Below, one piece after another: positions 31,947 to 64,000 of a stretch of 64,000 bases of DNA. Within the stretch, counting starts at the first letter, position 1, and each line of letters opens with the position of its first letter. Below the pieces are notes generated by a model. It had not been told where the DNA came from and made no database searches. It saw only the letters and a list, made by a program, of their open reading frames with translations. The stretch is from an uncultured Gammaproteobacteria bacterium (GTDB lineage Bacteria > Patescibacteriota > Microgenomatia > UBA10105 > UBA927). The translations under genes and the position numbers were made by a program. The DNA lies in assembly GCA_964349125.1 (NCBI GenBank), contig CAYGFH010000002.1, positions 174,484 through 238,483 on the forward strand, read 5' to 3'.

Positions 31947-34900
31947 TTACACCGCGCAGTAATTTGGAGTATCTTTAAACGCCCGATATATACCCATCAA
32001 GCCGTTGGCAACCAAAGCCTTCACACCGTTTCTGAGGATTGTTATAAACGCATTTGCACTCTTTACAATCCCACCCCAGAAATCTTGCATAGCGGTCATT
32101 ACAGTGCCTGATTGTGCCCCTTCTGATACGGGTTGGATCTCTTCTATAATCGGCATGATGTCTGATCCCTTGATATCCTGCCTACCTCGCAGACTCCATA
32201 CGGTTATCGTCGCAGTATTGCCGAATATTATCTTGTCAGAACCGTTGAAAAAATGAGGCAGTATACTTCCCTTTTCAAAAAATATACCTGAGGATGGCAT
32301 TTCTCCAAGCTTGTTTCCATCCGGAGAATAATATGGTTTTCCTGAGTATAGATAAATACAACCTGTATTTGATTGAGCAAACACAGTAGAGAGCAATCGG
32401 AACGAAACCCTTGGTGTCGTGCACGAATCCACAGTTGCTGATGATTTTAGTGTAGTGGTTGATAAGTGTTTAAACGTGATTTTTATTGTAGGCAAGATAT
32501 TTTTTCTTACTACGGGGTCTTTTTCCTGTTCCAGTGATATGAGGACAGGATACTCATTTGAACCTGCTACATCCAGTCCAATATGTATTGTCGGCTTTTT
32601 GCCGATAGTATCGTTTATCTTTACTATTGCGTCACGAAGCAGTTGTTTTATCGATGCATCAGTATTGTCTGTGGCAAACACATACTCCCCCACTTCATTC
32701 ATGGAGTACCAATACTTCACAGCCTGTGCCCCTGTCCGCTTCTCAAAAGATCGTATATGCAATAATGCTCGGTTCACAAAGTTATCAATACGGCGTTCAC
32801 GTTCCGCCGGGTTTGCAGGTGTTGAATCAAGTGTCTCGTTTACAAATGTCATATTTGTAGCTCCACCAGGCACTATCGAATTAGTTCCGGAAGGCCGCAG
32901 CATCGCCAAAGCTATGTCTTGAGCTTGAGAAGGCGCGTACAGCAGTGCTCGGGTTACTGCTTCCTGCGGATCCTCAACTCCCGCAACTGTTGCAAATATT
33001 TTTTTCAACTCATCAGCCAAACGAGATGATAATGATGGGGACGCAATGGCAAACCATGCATTAGACATTTGAACCTTTCTCACACGCACGGCTTCAGCAG
33101 GCTCCCCTTTTTCACTCACAGGCGGTTGTACGCGTTGTACACCCTGACGATCAACACGCAGCAAACCTGTTTCACCCGGCTGATACCCGATTTCTATGGT
33201 TATGACTGTCGGTGATGATGCCAATGGATCAGGATATGTTGCTATAATTTTTATATCATCCAGCATTCCTCGTATATCTGGATCCGCAGCAGTATCAATA
33301 CGGTATTGTAATTCTATTATGCGCTGTGCGATAAGAGGTGTTCCACCGGCATCTGATTTACGGGATTCTGTAAGTAAATGAAAATAGTAATTTTCGACCA
33401 CATATTCCAGGATAGATTCAGGAATAATGCCATTTTCTCTAATTTTGTCCGCATTCGGTATCGTCATTACCAGAGAAATACTGTTTTCGGGGTCAGAGAG
33501 TAATAACGTCTCGTCCGTAATAGAAATTGTTACACCGGGAATTTTATCCAATGAAACGACCTGCGTCTTTTCGGATTTTGGCAACAGAGCACCAGATACC
33601 GGATATGTGCTGGGATCCGACGAGATTGCCTCATTTTCAGCTTCAGCCTGCATTGATGATGCGTCTAGGTTTGCACTCTGCAGCGCGGATGACCCTTCGA
33701 ATATAAGTTCTATTTTGTTACCGTACCGGGTCATTCTGCCTATCGGTACACCCTGATACGAGACGATGAACGGTGCTTCACCGCTTACTATATCAAAGTC
33801 TTTTCCTGCCGCAAGCGCCACCAATGGTATCGCTGTGGAATCCCGCGGTACCTCCCGTTGGATCATCAGAAGCTGGTATGGTATTTCCGGATGATACCGA
33901 GAAATGACACGTTTCAAGTTCGTCTGGGTGGTATTGGAGACGCTCAGATAGGCTGTTCGTGTAGGCTGATTGAGATAATCCCCATCACTGGGAATTCCGC
34001 TGACAATGCCTCTTGGACGGATTTGCGCCCCTGTTTTCGTGTGTTCAAATACGATACCAGAGCTGCTATCCACTCTCACTCTATACTGATCGGAATCGCC
34101 AAAGGAAATTGTATCTCCGGGAAATAGCGTGACAGCGCTGTTCACGATCTGTCCATTTATCGCCACCGGCTGTGTCTCAGTGCCGGTTTTCTGGATAACA
34201 ATATTTATTTTCCCTGATGCGTCCATTCGGTTTACAACATACAATGGCAGAGCTTTTAGATCGCTTATTGTTTCGGTTTCAGCGATCGGATCAACAGTGA
34301 TCAATGTATGTGCTGTCTTTGGTATGGCAAATAGCGCAGGCCAGGGCCTGTCATGAACATATGGACCGGTATATACACTTGCGAGACGTTCGAGCTGCCA
34401 TAAGATCCATTCACCAGCTCGTTGGTACCACGGAATCGGTGTCGGCCACTCAAACGATTCTCCATTTTTCACCAGATTATAGTACTTGGCAAAAGCTTCC
34501 CGGGTACGTGCCGCGATTTCCGGATTTCCGAAACCATTGGATGTAATAAATGCTGTTCCATTCGTTGTATCGGTCATTATTGCCATGTTAAAGGCATAAT
34601 CACCGGTCTGATTGATAGTGGTTAACCCGTGCGGAACTCCATCGTACTTGTCACTAATATTTGTCAGGAGCGGTCCTCTCAAAATTCCTTGGGTGCCGTT
34701 AATAAACGGCGAAGCCATCACAATATTGGTAAAGAACCACTCCATCCACGATGGTATCTTCCCTCGATATGCTGTATATATCCTCTGTAAGAGGCTTTTT
34801 CCGGCTCTCCCTTCAGTGATCAAATTCTGAAGTTCCTGTCTGGAAACTTGTCGAAGGGCAGAAATAGCGACCGGAACCACCTGACCGTTTTTCGTCAGCG

Positions 34901-55900: not shown

Positions 55901-58900
55901 CTCCTTGAGCCGTGTCTTTTGTCGTGATGGTAATACCCGGGATATTCTCTGGCGTTGGAATGTTATCTCCTGTTGCGCCTCCCCGACTGATGACGACGTT
56001 GAGATTTGCTTCACCACTGGCGAATCGTTGTGCCAGCTTTCCTGATCCTCCTGTCGCATCCGGAATTCGTTGTGACAGATTTCCCGTCGCATCTGTATAC
56101 CCAGCCTGAATGGATCCATCCGCGTTAAACTTCACGTCATAATACTCAGATCCTCCAACTTGAACAACCCACGGCGTATCTTTGGGATATTTTCCGCTCA
56201 TTTGCTGTCTTCTGGCGTACTCGATCGTGCTCATGTTGAGGTCGCCTGCAAGGACATGTTTTGCACTTCCATTGGAAGCCAGGCCATTCGGGCCACTTGA
56301 ATCAAGCTTCTTTCCTGATCTGATTGCAGCAGCTATATCGATAAACCCATCGCCTGAGGCACGATATGACCTATCCGCAGTTAGTCTTGGAGGATTACCA
56401 TCAGCACCGTTAAATATCTTGTCAAACGTTGCGCTGCTCTTGGTAACACCAAGTTGGTATGAGTTCTGCAATACGCCTGCTTGTTCTGCAATGCTTCCTG
56501 TCACGGCTCGGACCGCTCCGTTGGCGTACCCGGAGATGTCTGATATTACGTCGTGGAATCCTGACTTATATGCACGATCTGGAGCCACTTCCAATCCTTC
56601 AAAGTTTGGAGGCGTTTTCCCAAATGCAGTTGCACCGATAGCCTCCATAACAGCCTGCATTCGTGAATTATACGTTTGCCCTTCACTCATGGATCCGGAA
56701 TTCCCAGGGATTGTCACTAATCTTCCTTTTGCATCAAATCCTCTAAAGAATTCGGTGTCATACGACATGGTAAGCCCTGATGCATAGCGATTGGTCGCAT
56801 CCACTAGATCAAGCACTTTTGCGATATCTCCTTGGGGAATACCTAATTTCTGCGCTTCAACTGCTAATTGGGCCGGGTTAGCGCTTGCGGTATTAAGCAC
56901 CTCGGCATTATCGACAATCTTCATAAAGACATCGGTCGGGATTCCTTTTTTCTGTGCGAGCTTTGTGTATATGAGTGTTTGTGCTTCCTTGCTAAATCGG
57001 GCGTCTTTAACGACAACGCCGTTTGCATCGATCACTTTCACGATAGCTGGCTTCCCTCCAATCGTTTTTTTCACGCCTTGATCGGGTACGCCTTGCTTCA
57101 TAATGGCTACGTCGTCAGCGATCAATACGTCATACACATCTTTGGCGGCTCCGACTACCTCAGGCGGCACAACAGCTCTCGCCGATGAGGCTGGGTTTAT
57201 CATCTGAATAGACGGATCAAATGCAAGCTGGAGTTCATCCACGCCGAGTGCGACATTTGCAGTTGCGAGTCTATATATGTCGCCTATAAGTGAGCCTTTT
57301 TTTGCATCCAGCCCGTATGTCTCCAATGCCATGTTTCTGATAAAGGCAAGGTCTTCCGGTTCTGTCAGTAGGATTTTTCCGGATGAAAGTTGATCGTGAA
57401 TTCGTTGCAGATCAGCAATATCTCCTCGCAAATCATCTGATTTTAGCCTCACTACTGACTCCTCACCATTTGGCATAAGTGTGCGCAGTTGCTGTAAAAA
57501 TGCGTCTGCCTGCCCTTTTCTGGCCACGTAAATACCACGTTCACGACCGAATACTTCCACATCTACTCGCAACATAGCCGTAAGAACCACTGTTTTTCCT
57601 CCCGATGTGACAAGTTCCACGGCTCTCGCATTATCCCCCAACAGGGACATCATGGTGTCTATTTGATTGTTTTTCCATGAACGATATTCACCGTCGAGCA
57701 ACCCTAATCGAAGTTCGGTATCACCCATGATTGTTTCAAACGCAAGCCCTGCAGATTCATCTAACCCCTTGGGGAACACAACCTCCTGGGCACTCATTTG
57801 ATCAGCAAGGCGCTTTGTTAGACTGGCTATGAGCTTGCTGTCACGAGATTTTCCTTTTATCGCCAACGCGGCATCCAACTGGGATTTCGTAACCTGTATA
57901 TCCCCCAACAGGCCTAGTTTTTTGATAGCTGATTGTACATCTCTCAACTGGGAAAGCGCCTGTACACGCTCCCCTGCGGGCGCATTGGACGCAAGTTCCT
58001 GCGCCCTGGTGAGCGTTGTGCCAAGCGTATCCATTTCTGTCTTGATCTGAGCGTTGAAATCCTTTTGAATCTGATCCCTTTGTGCTCCATCTGTGGTTTT
58101 GCGTAACTGAGTATCCCGCTCGATTTGCAGGTCTGTAATTTTCTGTCTACTCGCAGCTGCCTGCTCAACAATCGAAGCTGCATCCCGAGCATTCGGTCCA
58201 CCCGCATCTACAATCTGTTTGGATGCGTCTATTCTCAATGCGACGTGCGCCTCCTTGATTTTGGCGATTGTAGTCATTTTCGCCACATCTGACGGATCAA
58301 TCAGAGAACGAACGCTCCCTTGTGTTTCACGAATAAGTGTGGCCTGCTCTTTCAATAACGCTCGTTTCTTTGTTTGAGACGGCGAACCGGCCAATTCCCT
58401 GTCTATACCGGTAAGCCTATCCAGCTTATTGGATATTGTTATGAAATTTGATTCCATGTATGCAAATTGCACCATGTTTTTGGTATTGTTCACTTGCGTT
58501 TCGGCAGCCCGGGCAATACTGTCAGCTGCTTTATTGATGTATTTACTGTCGGTGTACCCTGCGCTTTCAAGTGACTTCTTGGCACGCTCGAACGCGAGTG
58601 TGTATAATTCGCTTTCACCCGTTACGCCTCGTTTTTGAGACATCTCAGTATAGACATCACTGATTGCCTTTTGGACCGCATCTACATCTCCTGTATTTGT
58701 GCCTATTTTTGCTTTTATGCGGGCGCTTACCTCTCCGGCTGCAAGATCAGTCGCCACTATTTGCTCTGTGCGCTTTTGCACAAACGCATCATTGACTTGA
58801 GTCAGTTCATTTTGTGTTGTTCTCCCAATACGTATTGCGCCCGTACCATCCGGTCGTCCGATAAATCTCTCTCGGACAGCAGCTATGATGCGCTGAACAC

Positions 58901-61900
58901 CGCGTGCGGTATTGCGAGCCACAGTCAATTCTTGAACTTTGGAATTCAACAATGACACATCTGCGCTTAAGACAGATAGTTGCTCTTTCTTAAGCTGTAA
59001 TTTCAATTTAGCGTCAGGATCATTTGATCGTATACCATCAGCTAATAATTTGATCTCGGTTGCACGCAATACTTCAGACTGAAGAGTTGCGATACGAGTA
59101 TCCAGTACTGCCCGTCTCTGTGACAAGGCAAGTTGTTGCTGTGCTACTACATCCGGAAGAACGGCATCTCCAGTTACTACGCCCTGCGCATCCACAGTCT
59201 TCCATACATACTGACCACCTTCTTGAACTGCCTTAAATCCGTTCAAAACGGTAGCGTCTATCTCAACTGTTCCTACATTCCAAACGCCTTTGGCGGCATC
59301 CCAAACTGGTGCTCTTGAGGAATCCCCAAGCGTGTTGCGCGCCGAGACGGCAGCCTGTAATTCGTTTTGGGCATCTATGACGGCTTGTTGCGCTTTCGCC
59401 CCGCTTTCATCCTGAATTCTTAGAACTTCGTTCAGCAACTGTGCCCGATCTCTGGATAATGCAGCTATCTGATCCTGACGGGTTATAATATCTTCCTGAA
59501 TTACCAACTGCCTGGAAGTTAACCCGATGGATTCAACTTTCTGTCTCGCTCGAGATAATTGTTGCAGTGCAGCATCATATTCCGCGGTACCTACCGAGTA
59601 GTCTTTGGCGACGCCCATGAATTTTTCCTGGGCGGCAACATATTCTTGCTGTATAGTTCTCGAACCTTCACTTAACCCATCAAGAAGTCGTTGTGCGGCA
59701 TTTCTGGGATTTTGCATGAGTGCGCGTTCAGCCTCGACAGACGATCGATATATGAGTAAATCATTGGTAGCTGATTGGTAATCACGAAGTGCCTGTGCAT
59801 ACGCAGCAGCATCTGGAGAGAGTGCTTTTAGGGCTTCTTGCGAGAGTAAATATTTGGATTGCGCTTCTTTAAATTTCAGTGCAGAGGGCACATCATCGGC
59901 AATATTGGTTAGCGCTTGTTTTGCAAGCGCGAGCTCATAGCCCTGTGCTCTGATAGCAGTCCGTAGCTGCGTCATAGCAGCAAGCTCTTGTTCAGCCATG
60001 ACAGTGGGTAAACGATTTCCGTTTGCATCGTACATTGACTGTAGCGAGCGACTAGCTGCATCTAGCTGTACAGCTGCGCCGTCTTCGCTGGCCTGTACCC
60101 TTGGACCTCCAGATGTTGGAGTTTTCAGCCCAACACCAAAACCTACTGTTGCCAACGTCGCTTGTGATATAGATTGAGCACATGCACTCGCATCTAACCG
60201 TGCCGCACCAGAAAAACATGCGATACCAGCTTGTAGCGCGCCGCCGCCAGCGTCACCCGCATCAGCAATCTGATTTGTCACAAGCGCGGTTCGAGCTATG
60301 GAGGCTGGATTATTGGCACTAGAGATTAGTGATGCCCCGGATGAAACGATGCGGAATATAGATCCTGCAACCGCCACAGAGTTTGCAGCACAACTCATCG
60401 CATCTTTTTGTCGCCCACCGTTCCCATCATCATAGCCGATAAAACATGCGTTAATGGCTTCGCGGCCCGAGATTATTCCACCCGCGGCACTGAGAGCTAT
60501 GTTGCTATATTGAATCCCACGCCCTGCGCTCATTGTTAATTCTGCCGTTGTTGCAAGAGCGGCACCATTTGCCAGATTTTTGGCATTGTTCACCAGCTCT
60601 ACTCCTTGCGCGGCATTAATTGCAGCATCTGATACTTGAACAGTTTTTTGTATCGCCTGCTGTCCTAAGCTATATGTGCCGGCTATTGCACTAAACGGTA
60701 TCGATGCTGCCTGCACGGCAGTATTGAGACTTGCCCACCGACAGTCAGTCGATGCCACTTGACCTGGCACACACGCAGTTGCGGTACGCTCTAAACTGGC
60801 GGTTGTTCCAATAACGCTTGCACCGACACCGGCTACCGTCAGATATGTCATTGTGGTACCGGCTCCGGCAGCAATCAGCGGCGCAGCTGCCCACGGAGCA
60901 AGCGCTACTGCAGCAACTGCTACTGGAACTGCGGCAACAGGAGCACCTTTTATGAGTGACCCCTGACGGAATTCCGCCATTATCTGCTTTTCTTCTGCGT
61001 TTCCAGCGACTGAATTATAAATTGCGCGTGGTATGTTAAATGCATTTGCTGTCATAACAAGGTTTGTCATCCCTTGACTATCTGCATACCATGCATCTTT
61101 ATGCAGCTCCTGATATTGAGTAACTGCATTCATCTGAATATCATTTCCGCGCTTTACCGCCCCGCTGGTGAAATTATTTAATACGTTCCAAAATTTCATC
61201 CCGACACTAAAATCGTCAATAACTTTTTCTACATCGGTTGCGATCAATTCCCCTCTTTGGAATTGTTCGTATGCCTGCTGATATCCTTCTTCTCCTTTAA
61301 TATTTTGATACGTTGGCGCGACGTCTTCCCATGCGCGAATCTGTTCATTTTGGAAATCTTCGAATGTACCTGTGGGATTGTCTTTCTTATATGCATCAAA
61401 TGCCTTAAGGTAATTTGCATGATACCCATTTGCAGGATCAGAGAGATATGTCCTGACAGCTTCATCTCTTGCTTTTTCAAACTCTCTACGCTCTGCTTCT
61501 GTCTTGAACGTTGACGGATCTATTATTGCTTCGAAGTGTGCGTCTTTTCCTTTTCCTACCAATACAGGGACATAGTTAACCTGCATACCAGAATATGGAT
61601 CAATTCCGCTGCATGTTTTTTCATCAACAGTACAAAATCGTCTGGCACCTGTGTTTGCATCGTAGATAATCGCCCCATCGATACAGGCGCCGCCTCCGCA
61701 GGCTCCATTGCATTGTTTTGTGCTGACAACAGCACCGTCACCACGCTGTCCAGCTGTTGGATTGAATGTTTCTACAGAGTTTCCATCTTCTGAGCATCGG
61801 TTGTATGCGGTAGATTGCCACATTCCAAAAATACCACCTACTTTTACTTCCACTTGCCCGCTTCCTGCCCCAATTACAGGACATCCGTCTGCTCCTTCCA

Positions 61901-64000
61901 CGAGTGCATACGGACTTGTGATGTCGACTTTTTGCTCAGATACTTTTCCGTTTGTCCCTGTGGTTGCCACATATCTGTCAGATCCTTTACAGTACGGTTT
62001 TCCTGCGAGCACGGTAATTGTTTGGGCACTCCCGCCGGTTGCCGATGGTATGGTAACACGTAAGGTTGGGATATCCGCTTTTAAGTCGGCGGGAAGATTG
62101 TTTAATAGTGTCTGTTTTGCCTGCTCAACGTTACCACACTCAGCCACGCGGGAAGTTTTAGAGCCTCCCTCGACTAATCTGCAGCGCTCTAATATTTCCA
62201 TATCTGTACCCGCAAGCGCTTCCATGGTGATCAACGCAGTACTTCGACTAGAAAACGCCAGACGATCAGATGCGCTCAATGTTGGTGAAATAATTAATTT
62301 AGCAAACGTCATGTCACCGCACCTAGCCTGATCAGCAGCGCTCTCGACAAGAATCTGACACGCGCTAACCACATCTGCAAACGAACCTTTGACTGCTGCA
62401 TTGCTTATATATGAATTGAAGCTGTCTCGAAATGCCTGTTTTTCCTCTGTTGTACCGTTGAACTGTAAGAGAAGCTGCTCACGAATTTTATTTGGGTCGC
62501 AAACTTTCGGATCTTTTCCTGCACAGAGTTCTGCGTTCGTTGCAAAATACTTATCTTCAAGTACCGTAAATCGTTCATATTTTTGTGTGATCTGTGTTAC
62601 GCAACTGTTGGTGCTTTGTATAACCGTGCCTCGTTCTCCTCCGCTACTCACTTCGCTGCACAAACCATCCAATTGTTTTAAGTTAGCGAGTAATTGATTT
62701 GGATTAGTTACATTTGCACATTGCGTGGCTCCAGGTTGCTGACATCGTTCCCACTCTGCTACAGCATGCGAGTATTCAACGTAATATGTATCTTGCAGAT
62801 ACTTTGCGAAATTTGCATCCAATCCTGACGTATCCATACCGTATGCTCCACCGGTTTGGATAAACGCCTGTTTCATGGCTACTTCATATCCTCCGCACCG
62901 CGCGGCAGCATTTGATTCACCATACTGGGCTTTGCAGCGCTCATAGAGTTCCTTCTGCTTATAGTAATCACCTACTGCGTCGATTGATGTACGTGATTCG
63001 ACAAATTGTGATCTGAGTATCAAAGAGGCTTCAGATCCACCGTACGCCTTAACCGCCTTCTGTGCACATACTGCCGCACTCGTATCCGTAAGCAGACATG
63101 CATCATAGTCAGATTGAATTGTACCGACTTTTTTTTGCTTTGCAGCATACGCAGCGGCAAGGATAGGATCTGTAATGACATAGAATGTATTTCCGGATTT
63201 TATGCATGTTCCTGCAGCCAATTCATTTTCAGTACAAGAACCAACAGACTTTCTCGCATAGTCCGGAATATTAGTAATATCGGGTACGCACATTACGTCT
63301 TTTTCAGGATTACACGTTACCCAGACAGGATTCCCGGCAGCATTGGCACTACAGACGTATCCACCCATGACGACAGTGCCCACTCCGAAACTGGTACCAT
63401 CTGAGCCGCTACAGGAACCCTTTGGAATACTTATCTCCTCACCGGCTTCCTTAGTATTAAGTCTTGCAGCTTCAAATTGTGCAACTTGCACTGAATTTTG
63501 CGTCTGGGAACCCACATACCAACTTGGTATATATTTATCGGTCAAATCGGCTTCTGTAATACCCACGTTTGCATTCGTCAAGTCTATATACGTACCGGTT
63601 CGCCCATCACATCCGTATAAATGATGTCCTTCTCCGATAACAACAGCGCCGGCTTCTATACCTCCACAACTCTGATTCCCTTTTTTCAGGTCTGTCAAAA
63701 TCGCAGGAGGGGCGGATGGTGCTACAGAGGTCGCACTCGCAGGTGGAGGTGTGGTTCCCGGTACTATCGCGGCTGTTGGATTCGCAGAAGGAACAGTACC
63801 ACTCACGCCAAACCTTCTGTTGCATTCATCAATGTTTCCGGGCACTCCCCTCGCACCATACATACACATGTTATATGCCAGTTGCTGCGCTGCCGTTAAT
63901 GTAGGTGCTACTGTTGGAACCGCAGTTGTTGGCTTCGGATTCTGGGCAATACATTTAGTAATCTCTGCCTGTACTCCGCCGGCTTTTTGTATACATTCTC
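31947..64000 (-). CDS. Giant multidomain protein, gene A. It is 5'-partial: the frame is open to the window edge, the first in-window Met is at 63869 and the stop is at 31947-31949. More than 10,680 codons are visible. Predicted to be a secreted or surface-anchored mosaic protein with embedded metallophosphatase-like, lipase/esterase-like and HExxH metalloprotease-like segments and an internal polytopic membrane domain.
   Basis: The six-frame track gives a single 10,640 aa minus-strand ORF, 31947..63869. I checked by hand that the same frame stays open from 63870 to 64000 (...PTTAVPTVAPTLTAAQQLAYN-MCMYGARG...), so the true start is upstream of the window. The C-terminal codons and the TAA at 31947-49 were verified codon by codon. 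The protein has a non-random composition with Cys-rich, coiled-coil, TM and motif-bearing segments. All long plus-strand ORFs in this span are antisense shadows. Confidence 0.9.
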   Translation of the reverse strand, partial: ECIQKAGGVQAEITKCIAQNPKPTTAVPTVAPTLTAAQQLAYNMCMYGARGVPGNIDECNRRFGVSGTVPSANPTAAIVPGTTPPPASATSVAPSAPPAILTDLKKGNQSCGGIEAGAVVIGEGHHLYGCDGRTGTYIDLTNANVGITEADLTDKYIPSWYVGSQTQNSVQVAQFEAARLNTKEAGEEISIPKGSCSGSDGTSFGVGTVVMGGYVCSANAAGNPVWVTCNPEKDVMCVPDITNIPDYARKSVGSCTENELAAGTCIKSGNTFYVITDPILAAAYAAKQKKVGTIQSDYDACLLTDTSAAVCAQKAVKAYGGSEASLILRSQFVESRTSIDAVGDYYKQKELYERCKAQYGESNAAARCGGYEVAMKQAFIQTGGAYGMDTSGLDANFAKYLQDTYYVEYSHAVAEWERCQQPGATQCANVTNPNQLLANLKQLDGLCSEVSSGGERGTVIQSTNSCVTQITQKYERFTVLEDKYFATNAELCAGKDPKVCDPNKIREQLLLQFNGTTEEKQAFRDSFNSYISNAAVKGSFADVVSACQILVESAADQARCGDMTFAKLIISPTLSASDRLAFSSRSTALITMEALAGTDMEILERCRLVEGGSKTSRVAECGNVEQAKQTLLNNLPADLKADIPTLRVTIPSATGGSAQTITVLAGKPYCKGSDRYVATTGTNGKVSEQKVDITSPYALVEGADGCPVIGAGSGQVEVKVGGIFGMWQSTAYNRCSEDGNSVETFNPTAGQRGDGAVVSTKQCNGACGGGACIDGAIIYDANTGARRFCTVDEKTCSGIDPYSGMQVNYVPVLVGKGKDAHFEAIIDPSTFKTEAERREFEKARDEAVRTYLSDPANGYHANYLKAFDAYKKDNPTGTFEDFQNEQIRAWEDVAPTYQNIKGEEGYQQAYEQFQRGELIATDVEKVIDDFSVGMKFWNVLNNFTSGAVKRGNDIQMNAVTQYQELHKDAWYADSQGMTNLVMTANAFNIPRAIYNSVAGNAEEKQIMAEFRQGSLIKGAPVAAVPVAVAAVALAPWAAAPLIAAGAGTTMTYLTVAGVGASVIGTTASLERTATACVPGQVASTDCRWASLNTAVQAASIPFSAIAGTYSLGQQAIQKTVQVSDAAINAAQGVELVNNAKNLANGAALATTAELTMSAGRGIQYSNIALSAAGGIISGREAINACFIGYDDGNGGRQKDAMSCAANSVAVAGSIFRIVSSGASLISSANNPASIARTALVTNQIADAGDAGGGALQAGIACFSGAARLDASACAQSISQATLATVGFGVGLKTPTSGGPRVQASEDGAAVQLDAASRSLQSMYDANGNRLPTVMAEQELAAMTQLRTAIRAQGYELALAKQALTNIADDVPSALKFKEAQSKYLLSQEALKALSPDAAAYAQALRDYQSATNDLLIYRSSVEAERALMQNPRNAAQRLLDGLSEGSRTIQQEYVAAQEKFMGVAKDYSVGTAEYDAALQQLSRARQKVESIGLTSRQLVIQEDIITRQDQIAALSRDRAQLLNEVLRIQDESGAKAQQAVIDAQNELQAAVSARNTLGDSSRAPVWDAAKGVWNVGTVEIDATVLNGFKAVQEGGQYVWKTVDAQGVVTGDAVLPDVVAQQQLALSQRRAVLDTRIATLQSEVLRATEIKLLADGIRSNDPDAKLKLQLKKEQLSVLSADVSLLNSKVQELTVARNTARGVQRIIAAVRERFIGRPDGTGAIRIGRTTQNELTQVNDAFVQKRTEQIVATDLAAGEVSARIKAKIGTNTGDVDAVQKAISDVYTEMSQKRGVTGESELYTLAFERAKKSLESAGYTDSKYINKAADSIARAAETQVNNTKNMVQFAYMESNFITISNKLDRLTGIDRELAGSPSQTKKRALLKEQATLIRETQGSVRSLIDPSDVAKMTTIAKIKEAHVALRIDASKQIVDAGGPNARDAASIVEQAAASRQKITDLQIERDTQLRKTTDGAQRDQIQKDFNAQIKTEMDTLGTTLTRAQELASNAPAGERVQALSQLRDVQSAIKKLGLLGDIQVTKSQLDAALAIKGKSRDSKLIASLTKRLADQMSAQEVVFPKGLDESAGLAFETIMGDTELRLGLLDGEYRSWKNNQIDTMMSLLGDNARAVELVTSGGKTVVLTAMLRVDVEVFGRERGIYVARKGQADAFLQQLRTLMPNGEESVVRLKSDDLRGDIADLQRIHDQLSSGKILLTEPEDLAFIRNMALETYGLDAKKGSLIGDIYRLATANVALGVDELQLAFDPSIQMINPASSARAVVPPEVVGAAKDVYDVLIADDVAIMKQGVPDQGVKKTIGGKPAIVKVIDANGVVVKDARFSKEAQTLIYTKLAQKKGIPTDVFMKIVDNAEVLNTASANPAQLAVEAQKLGIPQGDIAKVLDLVDATNRYASGLTMSYDTEFFRGFDAKGRLVTIPGNSGSMSEGQTYNSRMQAVMEAIGATAFGKTPPNFEGLEVAPDRAYKSGFHDVISDISGYANGAVRAVTGSIAEQAGVLQNSYQLGVTKSSATFDKIFNGADGNPPRLTADRSYRASGDGFIDIAAAIRSGKKLDSSGPNGLASNGSAKHVLAGDLNMSTIEYARRQQMSGKYPKDTPWVVQVGGSEYYDVKFNADGSIQAGYTDATGNLSQRIPDATGGSGKLAQRFASGEANLNVVISRGGATGDNIPTPENIPGITITTKDTAQGVVVQGASRLDRKEWIATQYLIVVDDTAGQFSTLSRAQMNDTQFAAFKQSIADAQTTLEKFNTAQANSLGLESAAKKPLEDIILRYRSSSDPAAQRIAEWASVKLLDLSSGASGRDVRTTSSARSTLEARNEQFAQMTKSFQALFDDPANKPYLDIIERSSPDLFKRLTINRDVMNGNTGTNPLSYLAEGVQIDSKDPPLLARDLGEYQRAHNATVKASSEAQQLAGSGKPDIKPVVQKQATPVAKSGFRTFMEARAPFVANLIWRPRPVVLPALQRIDSDMEISSSLSRGSISAFESAQVQAGYITAAMAVAEKIRTGQQITDEERNTFMAGRAAALSLQISAERNRDALAQTAGTQVATVKGIDMVGKIFETGDRISNIPVADDGRMILVGPRGGVTEISVSAMTLGDFDTYATFYIKPGTRKPTLKGSRAAKIRALQRSANTVEIKPSSTIQRSNVSSAATAFGDIAIAQETVDRAEAQVIAFDQIFDQDIRGRVRQVFTGSSQSTTALENATVAYIDAIQQAAQRNSNPNITPEVLETLVNPSAKASFDKEVHALFTATRLSTVRAMGEDGLRAQLLGDALGSAVSVAQIAAARVSSVPMADISGIVGISVPTTSVRDMLMNYVLLPSPWNPKWSAAERTRQWRALIVRQFATGGVGFIVDVVHYLIDARQHNTGYSRIGGMLADAARVRRELQGIGGTTIVPPLGAPATVIPPVAGVPIDTTLSDAAVRAAAIAQGIAAAGITGTKTPQQRSDILTGLIAAQIEALPEQDALATAWEAVVDAQSANAGNVSLQKAAKRSLRQGDVIPVVDVVSGKGNVIALTLDRDVWYTIGTDTTRRRIPTNGGVLNFDDTIVFYAEKSGRKKPLGILGGKLLARVSDADSGAHIRRSVYAPSVIEANDAYQKLVASNSTLQTTINLTTLYTAYIEVIKESLQTEFTRLGLTGSLLTDDDELVAIFQARVMAKARDDVPIDEDANIRAYMEAKFAGKETLLASLPKLQSDATVIDYTAWLDSLTQPVLNSVKVTTPPVSAPPISAPPVVAPVVDPAIAAEKAKKNTDALAILRTAYAELIASQRAAILAEVAKLKDTPLRPDEAAEQVEVIVRSGIFKSGFSNTAYTTTILAKLTAAGLTQAEAKAAYDEFVTKVVDPNFATITTAIMAGLTSTKTVTQKTVKVTETQAETLRYMYADYHSDVTKLQQMLEADNLITVKSDGSWEWVGGNSAKVIFLGDYMDRGVDKDGNIQAFLENDPARKKDKYYPGLEILNRLTALKSQAEAAGSEFTMLGGNHEVEFLWAMFEPDNSPRWDLFQRNGVSRREVAIAKKHLGLIRGWLENLSWISLRSDKSVMQHTDTAIYAKFIFSDDIAAVQDYDELDINDINRIAARVKAEKLTPEDVVRRINAGIRAQIRLASVPQLRTLFRSLTHHGQFSSSRAISDAYRGIFTAPVLYHGHNILKDPVYHNGTVVGLDVGLSAAYRDANSRFIGTTRIAGRTTIDSKPVDVTTYTYAYDANVLQSVDTKVPTNYVFGIFSSSPVAPASTKSTVTGAVAKAGSWLGSIINAVVRPQLYDGTTKKFQWGQIAISAGRTAVFIITKTFGLGVPWLAYDVYNTSVHLSDNPTFKTTHAWIGDNILFPNFWAKGLTPPARFWKTVSWVGTRFVGGLFVPQLIIPTLIHDGARFVADVFAGTAESIQALFAQTMDWSDSFTGFQKTLAKITIWGGWTIGAFATIAGLSLTLNAISIAFAVAPVISTAVSTGTAVSTTVWARGFTLLTSLFIFSNIISMINVIPKPADSAPDRNKNLYGIHAYILSPNPLGNNETPTWGVIKTVSLVTRWSLSGFNPILIGTDVLNMVINNRFRNRTPAAVQHTTPGTTGGAGVTTTLSDSTYEVKDTFWSKVTSLLGSYGVSWPRANGIEWLAQLVPAGIRGSYWWTAFTFTKGAVSLHAGLPFWLLQESRHFLEKIPKDSPWRFLLDTNELLFPTQWNDPTVHPVINVLKWPVWGVTRFFVAFGAQQWWLPIMDVMRWVDRYMNTGAAAPAVYTTGANVPWREAVGKIIPGFAPAPASFDDLPQWKQNLWKVTDSWFSKLLFSTPRNKTGWFLGSRGLPLIMVPKVSLGLILFDLFRSSVTPGGYFEYWSSDPYNQKGTLSNLAATAELDALVAKPTTLEAINFANKAIDKKELDALTDAPTKKRAQVMFDLKTAWIKYIADAKNVGKLLSMIEEGILKKTPDKATLDIVNLLMTVPGSTNPDRTNTVFDKDQKMIYALQFTEGIIAQLSVLNEASDRAVAAGTVNQGQSIADTKAALLSAIADQPKATDVTRQLFLVWLDRKAAELSKLPAKAVTPAAIVGGNYATPTGRKLLMDKAQVIVNQNKLPGDLTAQDAFTLYQGLLASDMAIAAADAASLPSTSTRFTSVLNDDIRIKIQRGFGDLSSTEVNKQQLKDIAANIFETEMNYVKNGTLSSAEDTININLIAFIIDPANKLLAPARYQKMNGATPLQLRNIQYGDFVQIPVTEIPGPAAANTAKDAARTAFAEYVAEYRGDFIEDVLSTKRSVPTIVRDRRAEYEATDEFAALLAVDPTAKVDTFLTAELNSIVQDVGALSSAWTSAEQNKIIAYGVSLLESGRKLIFGSLTTQIRNAVAKGSVSDDVYEAWVDKVAISMETKARDQYDTKVAKPKASPPKASKTDKVNEVYEDFLAVRNNLTALEGLSDSQKLLNKEWATADLRKLADELESLGLAKTSATTYTGLASYIRKLDKAQFSSAMTADSATKPFAKAVKNFLQWTDEKAKDGYHLTVFTTIKEEIVSQMNRTRPKPVTIQEKLDALNKIDKKKVRDVFKSQLQEFRPELTSISATDMNEAIDASIALQRYSVATVDLASLMELTKIGSNVIWPIITQIGGNVRGIQDYTSSLILPAFFRAIGRSQTVDRAEQIRKVVMTGLSPLTDMIGRAEDIVKLTNSINGKIKRLQAGIIADDVDENGFLNKSGVEASILVQYKRLTDGNQKGIFSKIQALVANGIIAPDAYAADVKAIGIALSDLGFDVPSDPAQIIKFIESLNVRLVSSVVSAGADVDKLTAAVDALDNKTKISADGIDSIMGATMYAKLLESLKQSFSAQSGPADVLNGIQSVQVDELMAAGKAAYGEYMGGSLPKNKEAALRASAEQILAMSTYLLPMGQLTDYLGMDIPKYNEETLGQILTGDAKRTAQTKFIQQSLKFYEKAIKKAQGNLSALEHIRYALEGAVLPIARLARGVSQVRAVIADVNAQIDSLMPSAKVLKDPFPALLSSAKWNAREKKYINHVKQAIEMMKSGKYEEVISQLSKSNAEEIAEGVGMLVDEGKNTLDPENGLRFENSSQHLKGTLMLGNTDISKLTMDQLRNVALMHIEQWSYGIQDLQAEKLKDHAVDIGIISGRAKNQTTFDYRTDVALFMQEAGIRLTPAFIGRYGRDAFVNKTGESVLQTYADPSIRSVFTLGKGNQADIIVSGDTDIAAVSVNIVRKADGNWYVKNVSTESQIDINLVVKAYNSETLLNDRDVLTIGGTSFIVSKGSSGMQLIDEKSGKEVAFFGSAGSIRSYSQDTATKILTDGATTKLNKNDVRSTIASLGSSANVSNIILDGNDQTIDARHLEIFVNDGVWYVRDVSTNGILVDGKKIKTKAKVTTLYNKSIITLTNGVSIVAQLSRNRQELTLQRADTQSGLRKILSEEVRKVREENNNQAGSISIDDAKKMLSGVVKKDKLTRLDRTYRYVIGRLDMGEHVLPVFDIGMRTRIDSLITRTSDYKGKGIKKIDQLSEGEIYLLLGHTLAAIDTLTEFAGKKSLLNNTDALVDSLGDAVESLTGKSRSSLFEKPPSTAVTLKEREKYLKGVVINPVSNELAKKLYSDGFTGLHRHADDDVSELFINYTEIAKMSQEKQIAALIHVFLHERLHIPQKGTSSQRYPGNNPTYKEILDEAMVYIAIAQQKGKKLTIFQTGTQRPKISDVERYLNDAVIDIASVYQRGTIQLIQQVIRLAASSKLGEQEVWSLFFDAALSGDITPFERAYNATFGDGKFGSKFSSNFSDASYYTTNAYKNAGDEADLEDSTIPGNQAEAIPVSSGLLANKKILVVDPASVHGSGIVQSLQFDGANASTTLAIADRDLAYLQTLDAIVVANSLPEAQIARIKANAGNVPVIEFTPEYEGNMEGFGQKVAQAITPDSALLLNQNQSTLAKSDIEAALKEGFQGGTPWIFPATFIPDLEKIPVEQIPDKIALIRESFFTLKRRLQDARDIVTATNIGVGEKQQMIFSAIGYDVLLESGINPDALFTAIGTAVKSGSYDRASFVNFLVLGYEGNGDTQGAALQAVLNTIDAVLAPMEKTLSSIETRAETIRQKKNENLRQGDAIRLPTQSVSAPSQNAPIAPSAPLVSTSQQRDLAEKWLGTELVSSLRTLFPSTTGDSTVQSILNSLASRIHHTLNDPSEQVLEESDVSAHFPWYQSGRLFTFMREAKNSREALQSLLFNEVALDGLIRDGGQTVVGSLLIKNIDQIVAAMPKNSMLRDTVLRMIAHRIESELARTTRSSSTYQIVVRQSPASVEFVILSDNASDTQIPTDVSAALRKYLGGTFFRNGLQVPAIIDGRRVNRELQFAIKNKREFETSQTSPLVRSNTSLIGRVSDFYTTFPPDIQAAILPLIEMASGTNPKVDVDAVRKKIVDRISQLTVNSSMEQGLPKVRVFHTGADAISYVRRKANNNFVTAVRIGVEDTSQNGKSDESQRAAFKTIIEYLRTLVPDIDVTAVYDAEASAWYLLVPDSTYSNIALSLSKLPEHMREKYIGRTGLATVTVTAEPIVLDQSEQQPGATSHEDMEVGYQRAFDSLDEPALDAQVMDIIRRFVDFANDPQGHEPTSDESKAVYELLNPSSQRGRIVLERLGLTERNMTNLAEYWNADVESKFTKKDFFGVKKGLVGRALLDYRKRRLGEEQLKADAQIEGAAKRIEAAKKTMTVSMQIAPGAYYVQESAFIDPRAGIFQFETISSDVEDPSAEYSADLLTIRLPTETLLELQRLQQNDHPEFLNRITVMLANKNKKVRIFIHGFHASKEVFRLFSKFAIPESTLENPVFADAKSLRGAEQTARKKSWVVETTQDGKPVLDSDGNYKRITGLQAWWYNVTDVGKLAYWALNKAKPPILRGSRRYVVQDVIRQIKIGNAALGIDSEQIELMLGHSYGAYTVEMFGIETYKDERYKNVRFVGDASVVNNNPNHLSLLYPDTKLKGNALRADKFLKWATRVFNNPVFPASWRRFFMSIGSLPVLRYEGKWTSLLGRIYDNLDVYSDGFHIVTSRSVHTATERKNPEMAGKDLVMLASLEDLFKYKTQMRELVNQGRLQLVVPDSEEKTAKSIDHILNSFFTFVLAWDMKNIEPPLPNRSSFMTRRTSGHYPPPEDWNVIIDAMNKVGVQPTLNSEVGVARSQSQAVSPLQANDSIAVKLMKMSATVGQIVSDVSTVINDRRIYDKKTGQLREKANLMDQFLMFLYPTYRTIRNIGKSPAFIQAKFALQSVALSDPDTAVIDHSIKGYYRQHIYDPDNYPIERNGNVLSSKTEEALLRWLTQQEVLERSIVQQSVDKVVAFAKAARVPSDSTVLQRTVAVLDDVSFDRELRAFARRKLRLDGVVNPTDSQITEYTQTIPGFYDHDFDMVVLRASAAVLAKSDEKIQAFLDDLVAHEFGHSMTTRYEPWLTREANEALSITFMIARRAYELQEAGKTPDTDGTYWKQAREQVLNDFVSPEYKSHFIAFEDSVIGTLFKLDTSTNNRIAQIMEFFNLTKDINPQAVETNKTDISVGLQLRTKFTEILEKMSITKATYTVDGKAVEVALDHDVVTDTFTKSFNGFRFTQDAPDEVVRFTSVANQIATPSDGLPDPSVINGGYVYMGVSGDAMWLRLPKEFTQSVYIGSELLRNEVAYQIRPGDVLTFERAPHDAAAHQYIVTVSHDASSEIGFEPVGRVQPVEYPKKQVPTSGEWTEALNVEAENYYRMRGKLALAAEGDSVMLKGMPKAGGDAIERRLSLYTSHTDFKAILAAFDTTQSLEIIVGDQQVGTISTSPADLYTANIEPGMYTTNRTSSHISPMSAPTVVKDESASSGQTTRISSKRLVSSYERARDYEISKIFLRVLGLSESSNKRLYDAAARTLVESKSLQEIFIFFKRSLLDHDEMVELPNIELSQNTDVSIIKKLEQEYTVRSQQRIWGQDAISMLSGLGGKLIGTVYLRELDGLAVSGNSPESQLVLRARAYVMQKVLKENKGALTNFEVVRVSANRYAIVSFDESFTYPELEKLFNKTEYKNLDAVLPGKSGIAISPVQPIITEPDEFLTALFAPEQYERGLLTKDGAVQIPANNPLYKNLVTHYGSLDTLLRGVIEEDALPAAGPEFIDRIRSLLVHLVVEDAVVETSLEIEKENQKFADDPSYSYTVYPDASDALEDAVRTFEKVSVIRIDDPSLGLAYTHESKKVADEMLKDMLRKINDVATRKLLFKNIIIYHPPGTSEFYLFAQSTFPFNKNEVSTHLQSVFGNSAKAYTPSGSERSYLRIPVVAMQPIPTEDGRPLLETFLDVKATLDDEIGLRTRQQIRKALTNNFQEVEPWKWSWFRELLRDTPSLVKQFNPNTESPQEYTDVFMRAILTSESSEDKALDMVLGDKENDNWSIAYQIDNHHKGSVTKLERFLMPVLERLFGKSKYKLNANRIDDTEMNGFEAEMNAATPPLIGRTADRVITEFVAQDDVNIEPSRALSALVTLGFSQDMYLHEFPQQWILNMDFTQKGHPPVSKKTEQNVVVGVYAKSTKSWKTVNIPYSMLTKLFESFDAATPESLVSIQSQLDAYIRAELSSAVASTKAPKHISFAYWDDPSTQGEAQRDWVARTGAPIVVGKDAKGWPMVANDHIIAHGYYANRMMRDLKSALGVVGDISTLRNRPYIQDDTRYKNTIFIDEVPGGAIDFYAATIAMAAASRIGGRTAVSTMVGVPGLDKDNKLTLTKNGQVVPVAISALRQVSRQELQNLITEGRAGKSLLQRIYTAYRGKIPSWMEWFFTNIVMASPFINGTQGILRGPLLTNISDKYDGVPHGLTTINQTGDYAFNMAIMTDTTNGTAFITSNGFGNPEIAARTREAFAKYYNLVKNGESFEWPTPIPWYQRAGEWILWQLERLASVYTGPYVHDRPWPALFAIPKTAHTLITVDPIAETETISDLKALPLYVVNRMDASGKINIVIQKTGTETQPVAINGQIVNSAVTLFPGDTISFGDSDQYRVRVDSSSGIVFEHTKTGAQIRPRGIVSGIPSDGDYLNQPTRTAYLSVSNTTQTNLKRVISRYHPEIPYQLLMIQREVPRDSTAIPLVALAAGKDFDIVSGEAPFIVSYQGVPIGRMTRYGNKIELIFEGSSALQSANLDASSMQAEAENEAISSDPSTYPVSGALLPKSEKTQVVSLDKIPGVTISITDETLLLSDPENSISLVMTIPNADKIRENGIIPESILEYVVENYYFHLLTESRKSDAGGTPLIAQRIIELQYRIDTAADPDIRGMLDDIKIIATYPDPLASSPTVITIEIGYQPGETGLLRVDRQGVQRVQPPVSEKGEPAEAVRVRKVQMSNAWFAIASPSLSSRLADELKKIFATVAGVEDPQEAVTRALLYAPSQAQDIALAMLRPSGTNSIVPGGATNMTFVNETLDSTPANPAERERRIDNFVNRALLHIRSFEKRTGAQAVKYWYSMNEVGEYVFATDNTDASIKQLLRDAIVKINDTIGKKPTIHIGLDVAGSNEYPVLISLEQEKDPVVRKNILPTIKITFKHLSTTTLKSSATVDSCTTPRVSFRLLSTVFAQSNTGCIYLYSGKPYYSPDGNKLGEMPSSGIFFEKGSILPHFFNGSDKIIFGNTATITVWSLRGRQDIKGSDIMPIIEEIQPVSEGAQSGTVMTAMQDFWGGIVKSANAFITILRNGVKALVANGLMGIYRAFKDTPNYCAV
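38794..38808 (-). other. Gene A HExxH site 2 (DDLVAHEFGHSMTTRYEPW), a zincin-like metalloprotease motif
   Basis: The plus strand gtgaccaaattcatg reverse-complements to H-E-F-G-H. It is flanked by AH...GH and a downstream EPW, typical of minimal zincins. Confidence 0.45.
40280..40720 (-). other. Gene A alpha/beta-hydrolase (lipase/esterase, PGAP1/DUF676-like) segment: IFIHGF oxyanion motif, then GHSYG nucleophile elbow
   Basis: GHSYG is encoded at about 40286-40303 (plus strand gtaggcaccgtaagaatggcc). KVRIFIHGFHAS lies about 140 aa upstream in the same ORF. The order and the G-H-S-x-G pentapeptide match serine hydrolases. Confidence 0.45.
42781..42790 (-). repeat. Homopolymer T10 (A10 on the coding strand) inside gene A, encoding QKKNEN
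   Basis: The plus strand has tttttttttt at 42781-42790. The reverse complement is cgt caa aaa aaa aat gaa, which matches the ORF-track protein ETIRQKKNENLRQ. Confidence 0.8.
44115..44129 (-). other. Gene A HExxH site 1 (IHVFLHERLHIPQ)
   Basis: The plus strand atggagcctctcatg reverse-complements to H-E-R-L-H. The context AALIHVFLHERLH was confirmed by reverse-complement. Confidence 0.3.
49527..51290 (-). other. Gene A internal polytopic, Trp-rich membrane domain (about 590 aa, at least 6 predicted TM helices)
   Basis: Several uncharged 20-45 residue hydrophobic helices were read directly. One is ITIWGGWTIGAFATIAGLSLTLNAISIAFAVAPVISTAVSTGTAV at about 50590-50760. Others include GFTLLTSLFIFSNIISMINVI, RFVGGLFVPQLIIPTLI, FFVAFGAQQWWLPIM and LPLIMVPKVSLGLILFDLF. 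Trp-dense loops lie between them (GSYWWTAFTF, VLKWPVWGVT). Boundaries are at GAVAKAGSWLG (about 51290) and LILFDLF (about 49527). The 399 aa plus-strand ORF 49570..50769 is its antisense shadow. Confidence 0.6.
52023..52205 (-). other. Gene A calcineurin-like / PPP metallophosphoesterase motifs II and III (GDYMDRG ... GNHE)
   Basis: GNHE is encoded at 52023-52034 (plus strand ttcatggttgcc). FLGDYMDRG is encoded at about 52185-52211. The two lie about 50 aa apart in the order expected for PF00149-type phosphoesterases. A canonical motif I (GDxHG) was not found upstream; SDGSWEW occupies its place. Confidence 0.5.
52740..52830 (-). other. Gene A Pro-rich interdomain linker (VTTPPVSAPPISAPPVVAPVVDP)
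   Basis: Located by reverse-complement of plus 52740-52830. It lies just C-terminal to the phosphatase-like block. Confidence 0.6.
57450..60050 (-). other. Gene A extended alpha-helical / coiled-coil stalk (about 850 aa)
   Basis: The protein between QELAAMTQLRTAIRAQ... and ...LTKRLADQMSAQE is dominated by Q/E/A/L/R/K heptad-like sequence with few Pro or Gly. An example is LQSEVLRATEIKLLADGIRSNDPDAKLKLQLKKEQLSVLSADVSLLNSKVQELTVARN. Confidence 0.5.
60800..60950 (-). other. Gene A Ala-rich hydrophobic segment (AAVPVAVAAVALAPWAAAPLIAAGAGTTMTYLTVAGVGASVIG), a putative membrane anchor
   Basis: A run of about 45 apolar residues follows the Cys-rich region immediately. It was located by reverse-complement at about 60800-60950. 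Confidence 0.45.
61000..64000 (-). other. Gene A N-terminal Cys-rich (about 5 percent Cys) presumably extracellular region with a Pro/Ala/Ser/Thr-rich linker
   Basis: The ORF-track protein has about 40 Cys in the first about 750 in-window residues (CSGSDG, VTCNPEKDVMC, TKQCNGACGGGAC, among others). A low-complexity TTPPPASATSVAPSAPP linker lies near 63700-63780. Confidence 0.5.

Follow-up and report, generated by a model that had tools for sequence, protein, structure and literature searches.

We analyzed a 64-kb stretch of contig CAYGFH010000002.1 (the window, taken at its full length) and found two reading frames, genes A and B, which lie in tandem on the minus strand and occupy nearly all of it. 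Gene A (31947-63998) runs as a single frame of 10,683 open codons from its stop codon (31947-31949) to 63998, where it leaves the window with its 5' end missing. Gene B (2-31552) is open for 10,517 codons, begins with an N-terminal segment resembling a signal anchor, and has its 3' end outside the window. Between them is an AT-rich spacer (31553-31946) without a terminator-like site, and the 64 kb contain no tRNA genes. All features described below are on the minus strand unless stated otherwise.

The first ATG of gene A within the window, at 63869, gives a protein of 10,640 amino acids (aa), which is a lower bound on its length; residues are numbered from this Met. No in-frame stop was found upstream of it as far as the window edge, and the 43 preceding codons (63870-63998) continue the sequence in kind, adding a Cys pair (C-x14-C) and a Pro/Thr linker. 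In addition, in a homolog of 7,292 aa (P0007), what looks like a signal peptide and ~450 more residues come ahead of the stretch aligning to gene A aa 18. Hence, the true N-terminus of gene A lies outside the window, and the annotated ATG start is probably internal.

Comparison with an independent 951-bp metagenome contig (L003), which is 76.7% identical to gene A in DNA over aa 7950-8264, gave a ratio of nonsynonymous to synonymous substitution rates (dN/dS) of ~0.12. Hence, gene A is real and constrained. The same contig carries two in-frame TAG codons (its positions 701-709) where gene A reads CAG (Gln) and AAG (Lys), for which sequencing error, a decaying copy or another cause is possible.

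To find relatives of gene A, we scanned 1.84 billion representative proteins exhaustively with HMMER, using aa 7401-8600 as the query. We found seven relatives only, namely a close fragment plus six proteins between 746 and 7,292 aa long, with sources in JGI/IMG, ENA, NCBI and Logan (one, P0006, is listed under MetaClust too). The only taxonomically named relative is KKU88134.1, from a Candidatus Gottesmanbacteria genome (Patescibacteria, Microgenomates group). P0007 and gene A are colinear in the head (45% identity), at aa 1906-2832 (30%), at aa 3407-3695 and 4553-4892, and in the HExxH domain, and the Gottesmanbacteria locus (L002) is colinear with gene A at aa 621-1650, in the FHA region and in the HExxH domain. 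Locus scans with a 1,000-aa query and two alignments, covering species-representative genomes as well as metagenomes from JGI and viral contigs, gave no match, nor did a word-index homolog search (capped at 8,000 candidates) with aa 3801-4200, aa 2031-2750 and an alignment of gene A with P0007, which also missed P0007 itself in the same collection. No internal repeats were found in gene A. The family consists of giant, non-repetitive mosaic proteins and is extremely rare in public data.

All motifs listed in an initial annotation of gene A, made from the sequence alone, exist in its translation: TSGGKT (aa 2088), GDYMDRG (aa 3889), GNHE (aa 3946), HERLH (aa 6581), IFIHGF (aa 7724), GHSYG (aa 7856) and HEFGH (aa 8355). 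From composition, the expected chance counts in gene A are 0.010 for GDxxDRG, 0.015 for GNHE and 0.034 for GHSxG, and HExxH is over-represented in both genes (2 vs. 0.047 expected in gene A, 3 vs. 0.13 expected in gene B). A PDB sequence search with the whole gene A protein gave no match at E <= 1, NCBIfam returned nothing beyond FHA-type matches, and PHROGs added a weak NinI-like match alone. The initial annotation was largely correct in what it observed, while its interpretation is supported in part only.

We found that the N-terminal part of gene A is a head of Cys pairs with Pro/Thr-rich linkers (aa -43 to 753; 61611-63998), which from its Cys positions and gap alternation is probably exported and disulfide-bonded. 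There are 38 Cys in aa 2-1230 (40 with the 43 upstream codons), and the gaps between them alternate between short (median 13) and long (median 44; Mann-Whitney p = 3.7e-5); the Cys-rich region, first read as holding multiple disulfides, is real. After aa 1230 come 9,252 residues without Cys, followed by three Cys in the last 160; even at the 0.2% Cys frequency of gene B, the probability of such a run is ~9e-9. P0007 has the same partition, with 56 paired Cys up to aa 1795 and then 5,497 Cys-free residues, and its aa 447-843, the part 45% identical to the gene A head, are positioned behind its signal peptide. Lack of Cys is typical of exported or translocated polypeptides. We infer that the Cys pairs form disulfide loops, which would be a sign of export, and an extracytoplasmic head, as first proposed, is consistent with both this pairing and the signal peptide of P0007. 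The head, for which Pfam, NCBIfam and the PDB gave no match, is an internal piece of a longer N-terminal region, not the N-terminus. Within it, at aa ~258-600 (61000-63100), Cys pairs recur every ~55-60 aa in like contexts (YERC..., WERC..., LERC...), a hint of a degenerate helix-loop-helix disulfide module in tandem that BLAST does not pick up.

The HEFGH motif, initially taken as protease-like, proved to lie in a conserved metallopeptidase-like domain of gluzincin fold (aa 8205-8490; 38400-39257), with a Glu (aa 8375) in an NEA motif on the next helix. Gene A aa 8206-8436 are 28% identical to gene B aa 8203-8409 (E = 4e-12). In an alignment of seven sequences, HExxH keeps both its His and its Glu throughout (H195, E196 and H199), and a Glu (E215) 15 residues past the second His, within NEA or WNEGMA, is likewise invariant. 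AlphaFold2 modeled the domain with predicted local distance difference test (pLDDT) scores of 70-90 as strands that precede the HExxH helix, with the Glu helix after it, and the model has the thermolysin-like catalytic-domain fold. The domain resembles the M1 aminopeptidases and M4 peptidases (thermolysin/LasB) of MA(E) in its preceding strands, its HExxH on the active-site helix and its Glu on the following helix; M1 aminopeptidases read WLNEGFA where gene B, P0004 and P0007 read WNEGMA. It differs from M1 and M4 in its spacing from HExxH to Glu (15 residues in the gene A family, 18-19 in M1 and M4), in its own N-terminal conserved motifs (KGY, DP..YPL and FYD...G...R) and in being embedded in giant proteins. 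No member matched a peptidase family at E <= 0.1 (the best was Reprolysin_3, at E = 0.22 in one member), a PDB profile search gave no match, and the domain went undetected by Pfam, NCBIfam and PHROG models. From its alignment and model, it looks like an undescribed gluzincin family.

We also found two tandem FHA domains (aa 6125-6204 and 6236-6345; 44835-45497), which had been overlooked. These are solid: the Pfam FHA model (PF00498) matched aa 6262-6328 with 50.1 bits against a cut-off of 20.7 (E = 3.7e-13), NCBIfam gave TagH/FhaB matches, and the first copy, aa 6125-6204, was recovered by iterative search. The region also has weak matches to the TagH and YscD FHA models, and it is conserved in P0005, P0006, L002 and L004.

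A PPP-type metallophosphatase-like domain lies at aa ~3845-4150 (51420-52337). The DxH (D3849-x-H3851), GDxxDRG (GDYMDRG, aa 3889) and GNHE (aa 3946) motifs follow in canonical PPP order, each of the latter two with a chance expectation far below one (given above), and HGH (aa 4109) and LDVG (aa 4127) are candidate C-terminal His-ligand motifs only. Pfam Metallophos (PF00149) scored 20.1 bits (E = 9.4e-4) on the isolated aa 3830-4190 and 16.6 bits on a tile, which puts the segment just below the gathering cut-off of 21.5 bits, and the NinI-like Ser/Thr phosphatase family PHROG 246 matched at E = 0.0068 over motifs I-II. With near-threshold matches in two libraries of hidden Markov models and the complete motif set, the metallophosphatase-like segment initially proposed held up. 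A PDB sequence search gave no match to it, and BLAST against lambda phosphatase matched the motifs alone. Since P0007 is missing this region, the phosphatase is a lineage-specific insertion. Like the PPP phosphatases of bacteria and phages (lambda NinI/PP, PrpA/B and ApaH-like), it has DxH, GDxxDRG and GNHE, then GH and an LDxG-like motif; unlike them, it has 50 extra residues inserted between motifs II and III, a long insertion before GH, and a giant polypeptide around it.

The weak P-loop-like TSGGKT noted initially belongs to a larger conserved module (55710-57752), with GGKT at aa 2088-2093 and VDEL at aa 2210-2213. It is 30-33% identical to P0007 over ~930 aa, with GGKT, VDEL and a number of further motifs unchanged; position -3 of GGKT is Ser or Asn in gene A and P0007 instead of the usual Gly. 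Pfam and the PDB gave no match here, and on motif conservation the module is a candidate NTPase. By eye, the order and spacing of motifs at aa 2068-2667 are like those of SecA, a lead only, which the searches did not support. There was no Pfam match to SecA or SF2 in gene A or P0007, SecA was absent from the PDB profile matches, and hhalign of the module against E. coli SecA gave P = 0.28. An AlphaFold2 model of the P-loop region from two sequences had a pLDDT of 36.6. We dropped the SecA-like reading of aa 2068-2667, for which hhalign and the profile searches gave no support.

Between the head and this module, an Ala-rich hydrophobic segment (aa 972-1027; 60789-60956) reaches a Kyte-Doolittle peak of 2.0. 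It had been called an anchor, which is doubtful: on a Hessa-type scale, membrane insertion of aa 972-1027 is not predicted, and disulfide-type Cys pairs flank the segment on both sides. It is followed by a low-charge region rich in Gly, Ala and Ser (aa 1028-1250; 60120-60788), where the final three Cys pairs are found (1033/1043, 1142/1160 and 1218/1230); at the corresponding place in P0007, after its own hydrophobic segment, there are likewise three. Next is a 'stalk' (aa 1251-2030; 57780-60119) that is rich in helix formers and poor in aromatic residues. Of the coiled coil of ~850 aa initially described, the composition stands (aa ~1200-2000), but the heptad periodicity is modest only (weak, 3.5 residues), and the stalk is a candidate coiled coil. 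It is conserved in part, in L002 (gene A aa 621-1650) and in P0007 (from aa 1906).

Farther along, a Pro-rich linker TTPPVSAPPISAPPVVAPVV (aa 3685-3704; 52758-52817) is present, but it precedes the phosphatase rather than following it as first described. A Trp-rich, membrane-associated block (aa ~4230-4790; 49500-51182) comes after the phosphatase. It had been termed polytopic; the hydrophobic block is there, but on hydrophobicity scales only two segments are firm (aa 4382-4402 and 4428-4446; 50532-50726), a probable transmembrane hairpin, with weaker hydrophobic segments around it. P0007 has an equivalent hydrophobic pair at 3838-3856 and 3874-3892, and gene A aa 4553-4892 are 25% identical to P0007 3913-4297. 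Antisense to this block, on the plus strand, is a 399-aa ATG-initiated open reading frame (ORF; 49570-50769), which is probably spurious.

Two further enzyme calls of the initial annotation did not survive. For the lipase-like segment, gene A has an alpha/beta-hydrolase-like motif set (aa ~7715-8085; 39615-40727), comprising IFIHGF (aa 7724), GHSYG (aa 7856), VVPDSEE (aa 8021) and SGHYPPPEDW (aa 8069), in which a GxSxG nucleophile elbow and an upstream HG oxyanion motif are present. The set is putative: for aa 7691-8100 we found no Pfam family at E <= 10 (PF05057 and PF07819 included) and no PDB match, AlphaFold2 of aa 7681-8200 on effectively single-sequence input gave a pLDDT < 50, and the sole homolog is the ~75%-identical fragment (L003/P0001). 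There is no profile, PDB or structural support beyond the motifs. The second supposed HExxH protease, HERLH (aa 6581-6585; 44115-44129), is a motif only; it is missing from P0005-P0007 and has no Pfam match. We considered HERLH as a degenerate second gluzincin copy and rejected this, with hhalign and hmmsearch against the gluzincin profile non-significant. As these failed calls illustrate, motif reading alone over-calls enzymes in such giant proteins.

Gene B carries a paralog of the gluzincin domain (6326-6946), similar to the HEFGH domain of gene A, and ~500 aa downstream of it a GNAT acetyltransferase domain (aa ~8896-8964; 4661-4867) that Pfam matched at E = 1e-7. This GNAT domain is the only Pfam family above the cut-off in the 10,517 codons, so the description of gene B as transferase-rich comes down, by Pfam, to a single match. 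After its N-terminal anchor, gene B has 20 Cys over 10,000 aa, nearly all in local pairs, often as C-x19-24-C. Nine of the gaps between Cys span at most 25 residues where 0.9 would be expected, a count not reached in any of 5,000 simulations. Its relative P0004 likewise has C-x(~20)-C pairs from end to end, suggesting that a small disulfide-loop element recurs in the two proteins.

Similarity between genes A and B is confined to the gluzincin domain. The functional pairing first proposed for them is supported by their tandem, same-strand order and by the paralogous gluzincin domains; the contrast of a hydrolase set with a transferase-rich partner is not, since the hydrolases are supported only in part and gene B is not transferase-rich. 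The pair may act in attack or adhesion.

Relatives of gene A carry further segments of their own. P0007 has two copies of an H-G-S ... G-x-G-L-Y-A-T motif (aa 5793-5830 and 6446-6485) with a weak ART-PolyVal match (E = 0.0047), which may be ADP-ribosyltransferase-like (ART-like) cassettes and have no counterpart in gene A. P0002 ends in a Hint/intein-like segment (aa ~719-800; CVTGDTKL...), a PT-HINT protein is encoded immediately before the Gottesmanbacteria homolog (L002 1-1264), and the C-terminus of P0003 has a GGDEF-like 'RTGGDEITF'. Family members seem to exchange cassettes. On a 229-kb ENA contig (L001 1-18952), 14 abutting same-strand ORFs of 68-1,813 aa with FHA and gluzincin pieces look like a giant gene fragmented by frameshifts or assembly errors.

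On the basis of a conserved scaffold with variable cassettes, a probably exported head and a Cys-free body, we favor the reading, at a probability of roughly 40%, that gene A encodes an envelope-anchored protein for host contact or attack, in which a conserved scaffold carries swappable enzyme cassettes. The scaffold would consist of an exported head of disulfide loops, the hydrophobic and Gly/Ala-rich segment, the helical stalk, the GGKT/VDEL module, the transmembrane hairpin with its Trp-rich block, the two FHA domains and the M1/thermolysin-like gluzincin. The variable cassettes would be the PPP phosphatase and perhaps the alpha/beta hydrolase in gene A, the two ART-like modules in P0007, and Hint/PT-HINT in other relatives. 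The envelope of the producer would hold the protein while its head contacts a partner cell (host or prey), and the Cys-free body could supply Zn-dependent proteolysis, dephosphorylation of phospho-Ser/Thr and binding of phospho-Thr at the contact site or inside the partner. Gene B, in tandem, would be a paralogous partner with the common gluzincin domain.

Several observations weigh against this reading. FHA, PPP phosphatase and P-loop modules are normally cytoplasmic, so that a large part of the body may never leave the producing cell. How often the gene A protein crosses the membrane is uncertain, the ART match in P0007 is under the Pfam cut-off, and the relatives that point to Patescibacteria are 21-45% identical. 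The window shows neither an apparatus for secretion or delivery nor an immunity gene nor a processing site.

The principal alternative takes up the first of these points. The protein would be a mostly cytoplasmic, membrane-tethered mega-scaffold with only the Cys-rich head outside and a membrane pass near aa 972-1250; its body would be a signaling or secretion platform with a divergent SecA-like or SF2 NTPase, a PPP phosphatase and an FHA pair that reads phospho-Thr, and the hairpin at aa 4382-4446 would re-tether it. The FHA domains, the PPP phosphatase and the GGKT/VDEL module, which is conserved, all belong to types that work in the cytoplasm, and divergent SecA_DEAD domains and Ser/Thr phosphatases have been reported in giant proteins (bioRxiv 10.1101/2023.11.21.568195). 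We hold this alternative to be somewhat less likely than the host-contact reading. Pfam, profile searching of the PDB and hhalign did not detect SecA/SF2 homology, and AlphaFold2 gave no informative model; 9,252 aa without Cys are unexpected for a cytoplasmic protein; three disulfide-type Cys pairs come after the supposed anchor; and in gene B, which has a signal anchor at its N-terminus, the shared gluzincin domain has Cys pairs on either side.

Less likely than a cytoplasmic scaffold, and doubtful in our view, is a purely extracellular giant adhesin or surface enzyme, a hairpin-anchored fiber with a distal protease in which the FHA and phosphatase-like parts serve in structure or binding and not in signaling. 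The signal peptide of P0007 and the Cys-free body would fit such a fiber, a two-segment hairpin puts both flanks on the same side, and giant envelope proteins of Vampirococcus have been read as surface fibers (PMC8080830). However, gene A has no internal repeats and no adhesin-type domain in Pfam, unlike known fiber adhesins, its phosphatase retains metal-ligand motifs, and the ART-like cassettes of P0007 would require NAD+. Repeat adhesins of the Chlorochromatium, RTX and Ebh types were rejected for want of repeats and Pfam matches, and a phage polyvalent protein was rejected for want of DNA-processing domains.

A more far-reaching form of the host-contact reading, to which we give little chance, is that genes A and B represent an undescribed class of contact-dependent mega-effectors of Patescibacteria. 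The disulfide-rich head and the Gly/Ala segment would engage or breach the host envelope, the Cys-free body would enter the host with its gluzincin, PPP phosphatase and tandem FHA domains, and the phosphatase and FHA domains would blunt host threat-sensing by phospho-threonine. In Actinomycetales, an FHA-based pathway for sensing Saccharibacteria has recently been reported (PMC13622651).

Least probable of all is that the catalytic motifs arose by chance in a real but enzymatically inert structural protein or that the frame is an assembly artifact: although the lipase region and HERLH lack support beyond short motifs and ~95% of the gene A protein matches no family, 10,683 open codons are impossible by chance, purifying constraint against the independent metagenome fragment and homologs from four independent sources argue for a real gene, and the HExxH and Glu invariant in seven sequences within a gluzincin fold, with GDxxDRG and GNHE found together in the right order against expectations of 0.010 and 0.015, largely exclude chance or artifact for the HEFGH and phosphatase segments.

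Both in Patescibacteria and in Omnitrophota, giant envelope proteins have been tied to predation or to attachment to a host (PMC8080830; bioRxiv 10.1101/2023.11.21.568195). Gene A resembles the giants of Omnitrophota and other ultra-small or predatory bacteria in being a very long mosaic that is associated with the membrane and for the most part escapes annotation (West-Roberts et al. 2023, bioRxiv 10.1101/2023.11.21.568195). The giants of that study include Ser/Thr phosphatase and peptidase domains, have a proposed role toward host or prey, and hold domains so divergent that recognizing them takes structure prediction. Gene A differs from the Omnitrophota giants in size (~10.7k aa or more, vs. 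>30k aa) and in having few firm transmembrane segments; its relatives point to Patescibacteria (Gottesmanbacteria) rather than Omnitrophota, and a Cys-pair head with a Cys-free body is not described there. With respect to the Omnitrophota giant-gene classes (Archaeovorin and Dockerin type), Pfam gave no SecA_DEAD, dockerin or carbohydrate-active domain in gene A, and there are two firm transmembrane segments as against the many transmembrane helices of those classes.

A conserved scaffold, variable enzymatic cassettes and a zincin protease are also features of polymorphic toxins, polyvalent proteins and MARTX (Iyer et al. 2017, PMC5512222). Unlike these groups, gene A is without RTX, Rhs or filamentous-hemagglutinin repeats and without DNA-processing or cysteine protease processing domains. 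It has no identifiable C-terminal toxin-immunity pair, Hint and PT-HINT occur in relatives only, and delivery would have to be supposed; the window holds no small downstream gene, and the 3' end of gene B lies outside it. Gene A is like EssC/YukB of type VII secretion and YscD/TagH of type III and type VI secretion systems (T3SS/T6SS) in combining tandem FHA domains with a P-loop-like motif in a membrane-associated protein. Unlike EssC/YukB, it is without FtsK/SpoIIIE ATPase domains, its FHA domains are 6,000 aa from the N-terminus, and its architecture is otherwise unrelated.

Patescibacteria genomes are typically small. At least 64 kb devoted to two genes in a lineage of small genomes points to a function central to its lifestyle. 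Genes A and B are a variant of the known giant envelope proteins of ultra-small symbiotic or predatory bacteria, in a family nearly invisible to annotation. The protease, phosphatase and FHA domains can be tested, as can the topology hypothesis, and both offer handles on how episymbionts attach to or manipulate their hosts.

At the other end of the protein, the C-terminal ~170 aa (31950-32462) are where Cys return (10483/10504 and 10638), and the tail ends in amphipathic, hydrophobic sequence. We found there (aa 10470-10640) a beta-rich stretch, then an amphipathic hydrophobic helix, with Cys 10638 three residues from the end ('...NYCAV'), and this C-terminus may be a separate module or a tail anchor.

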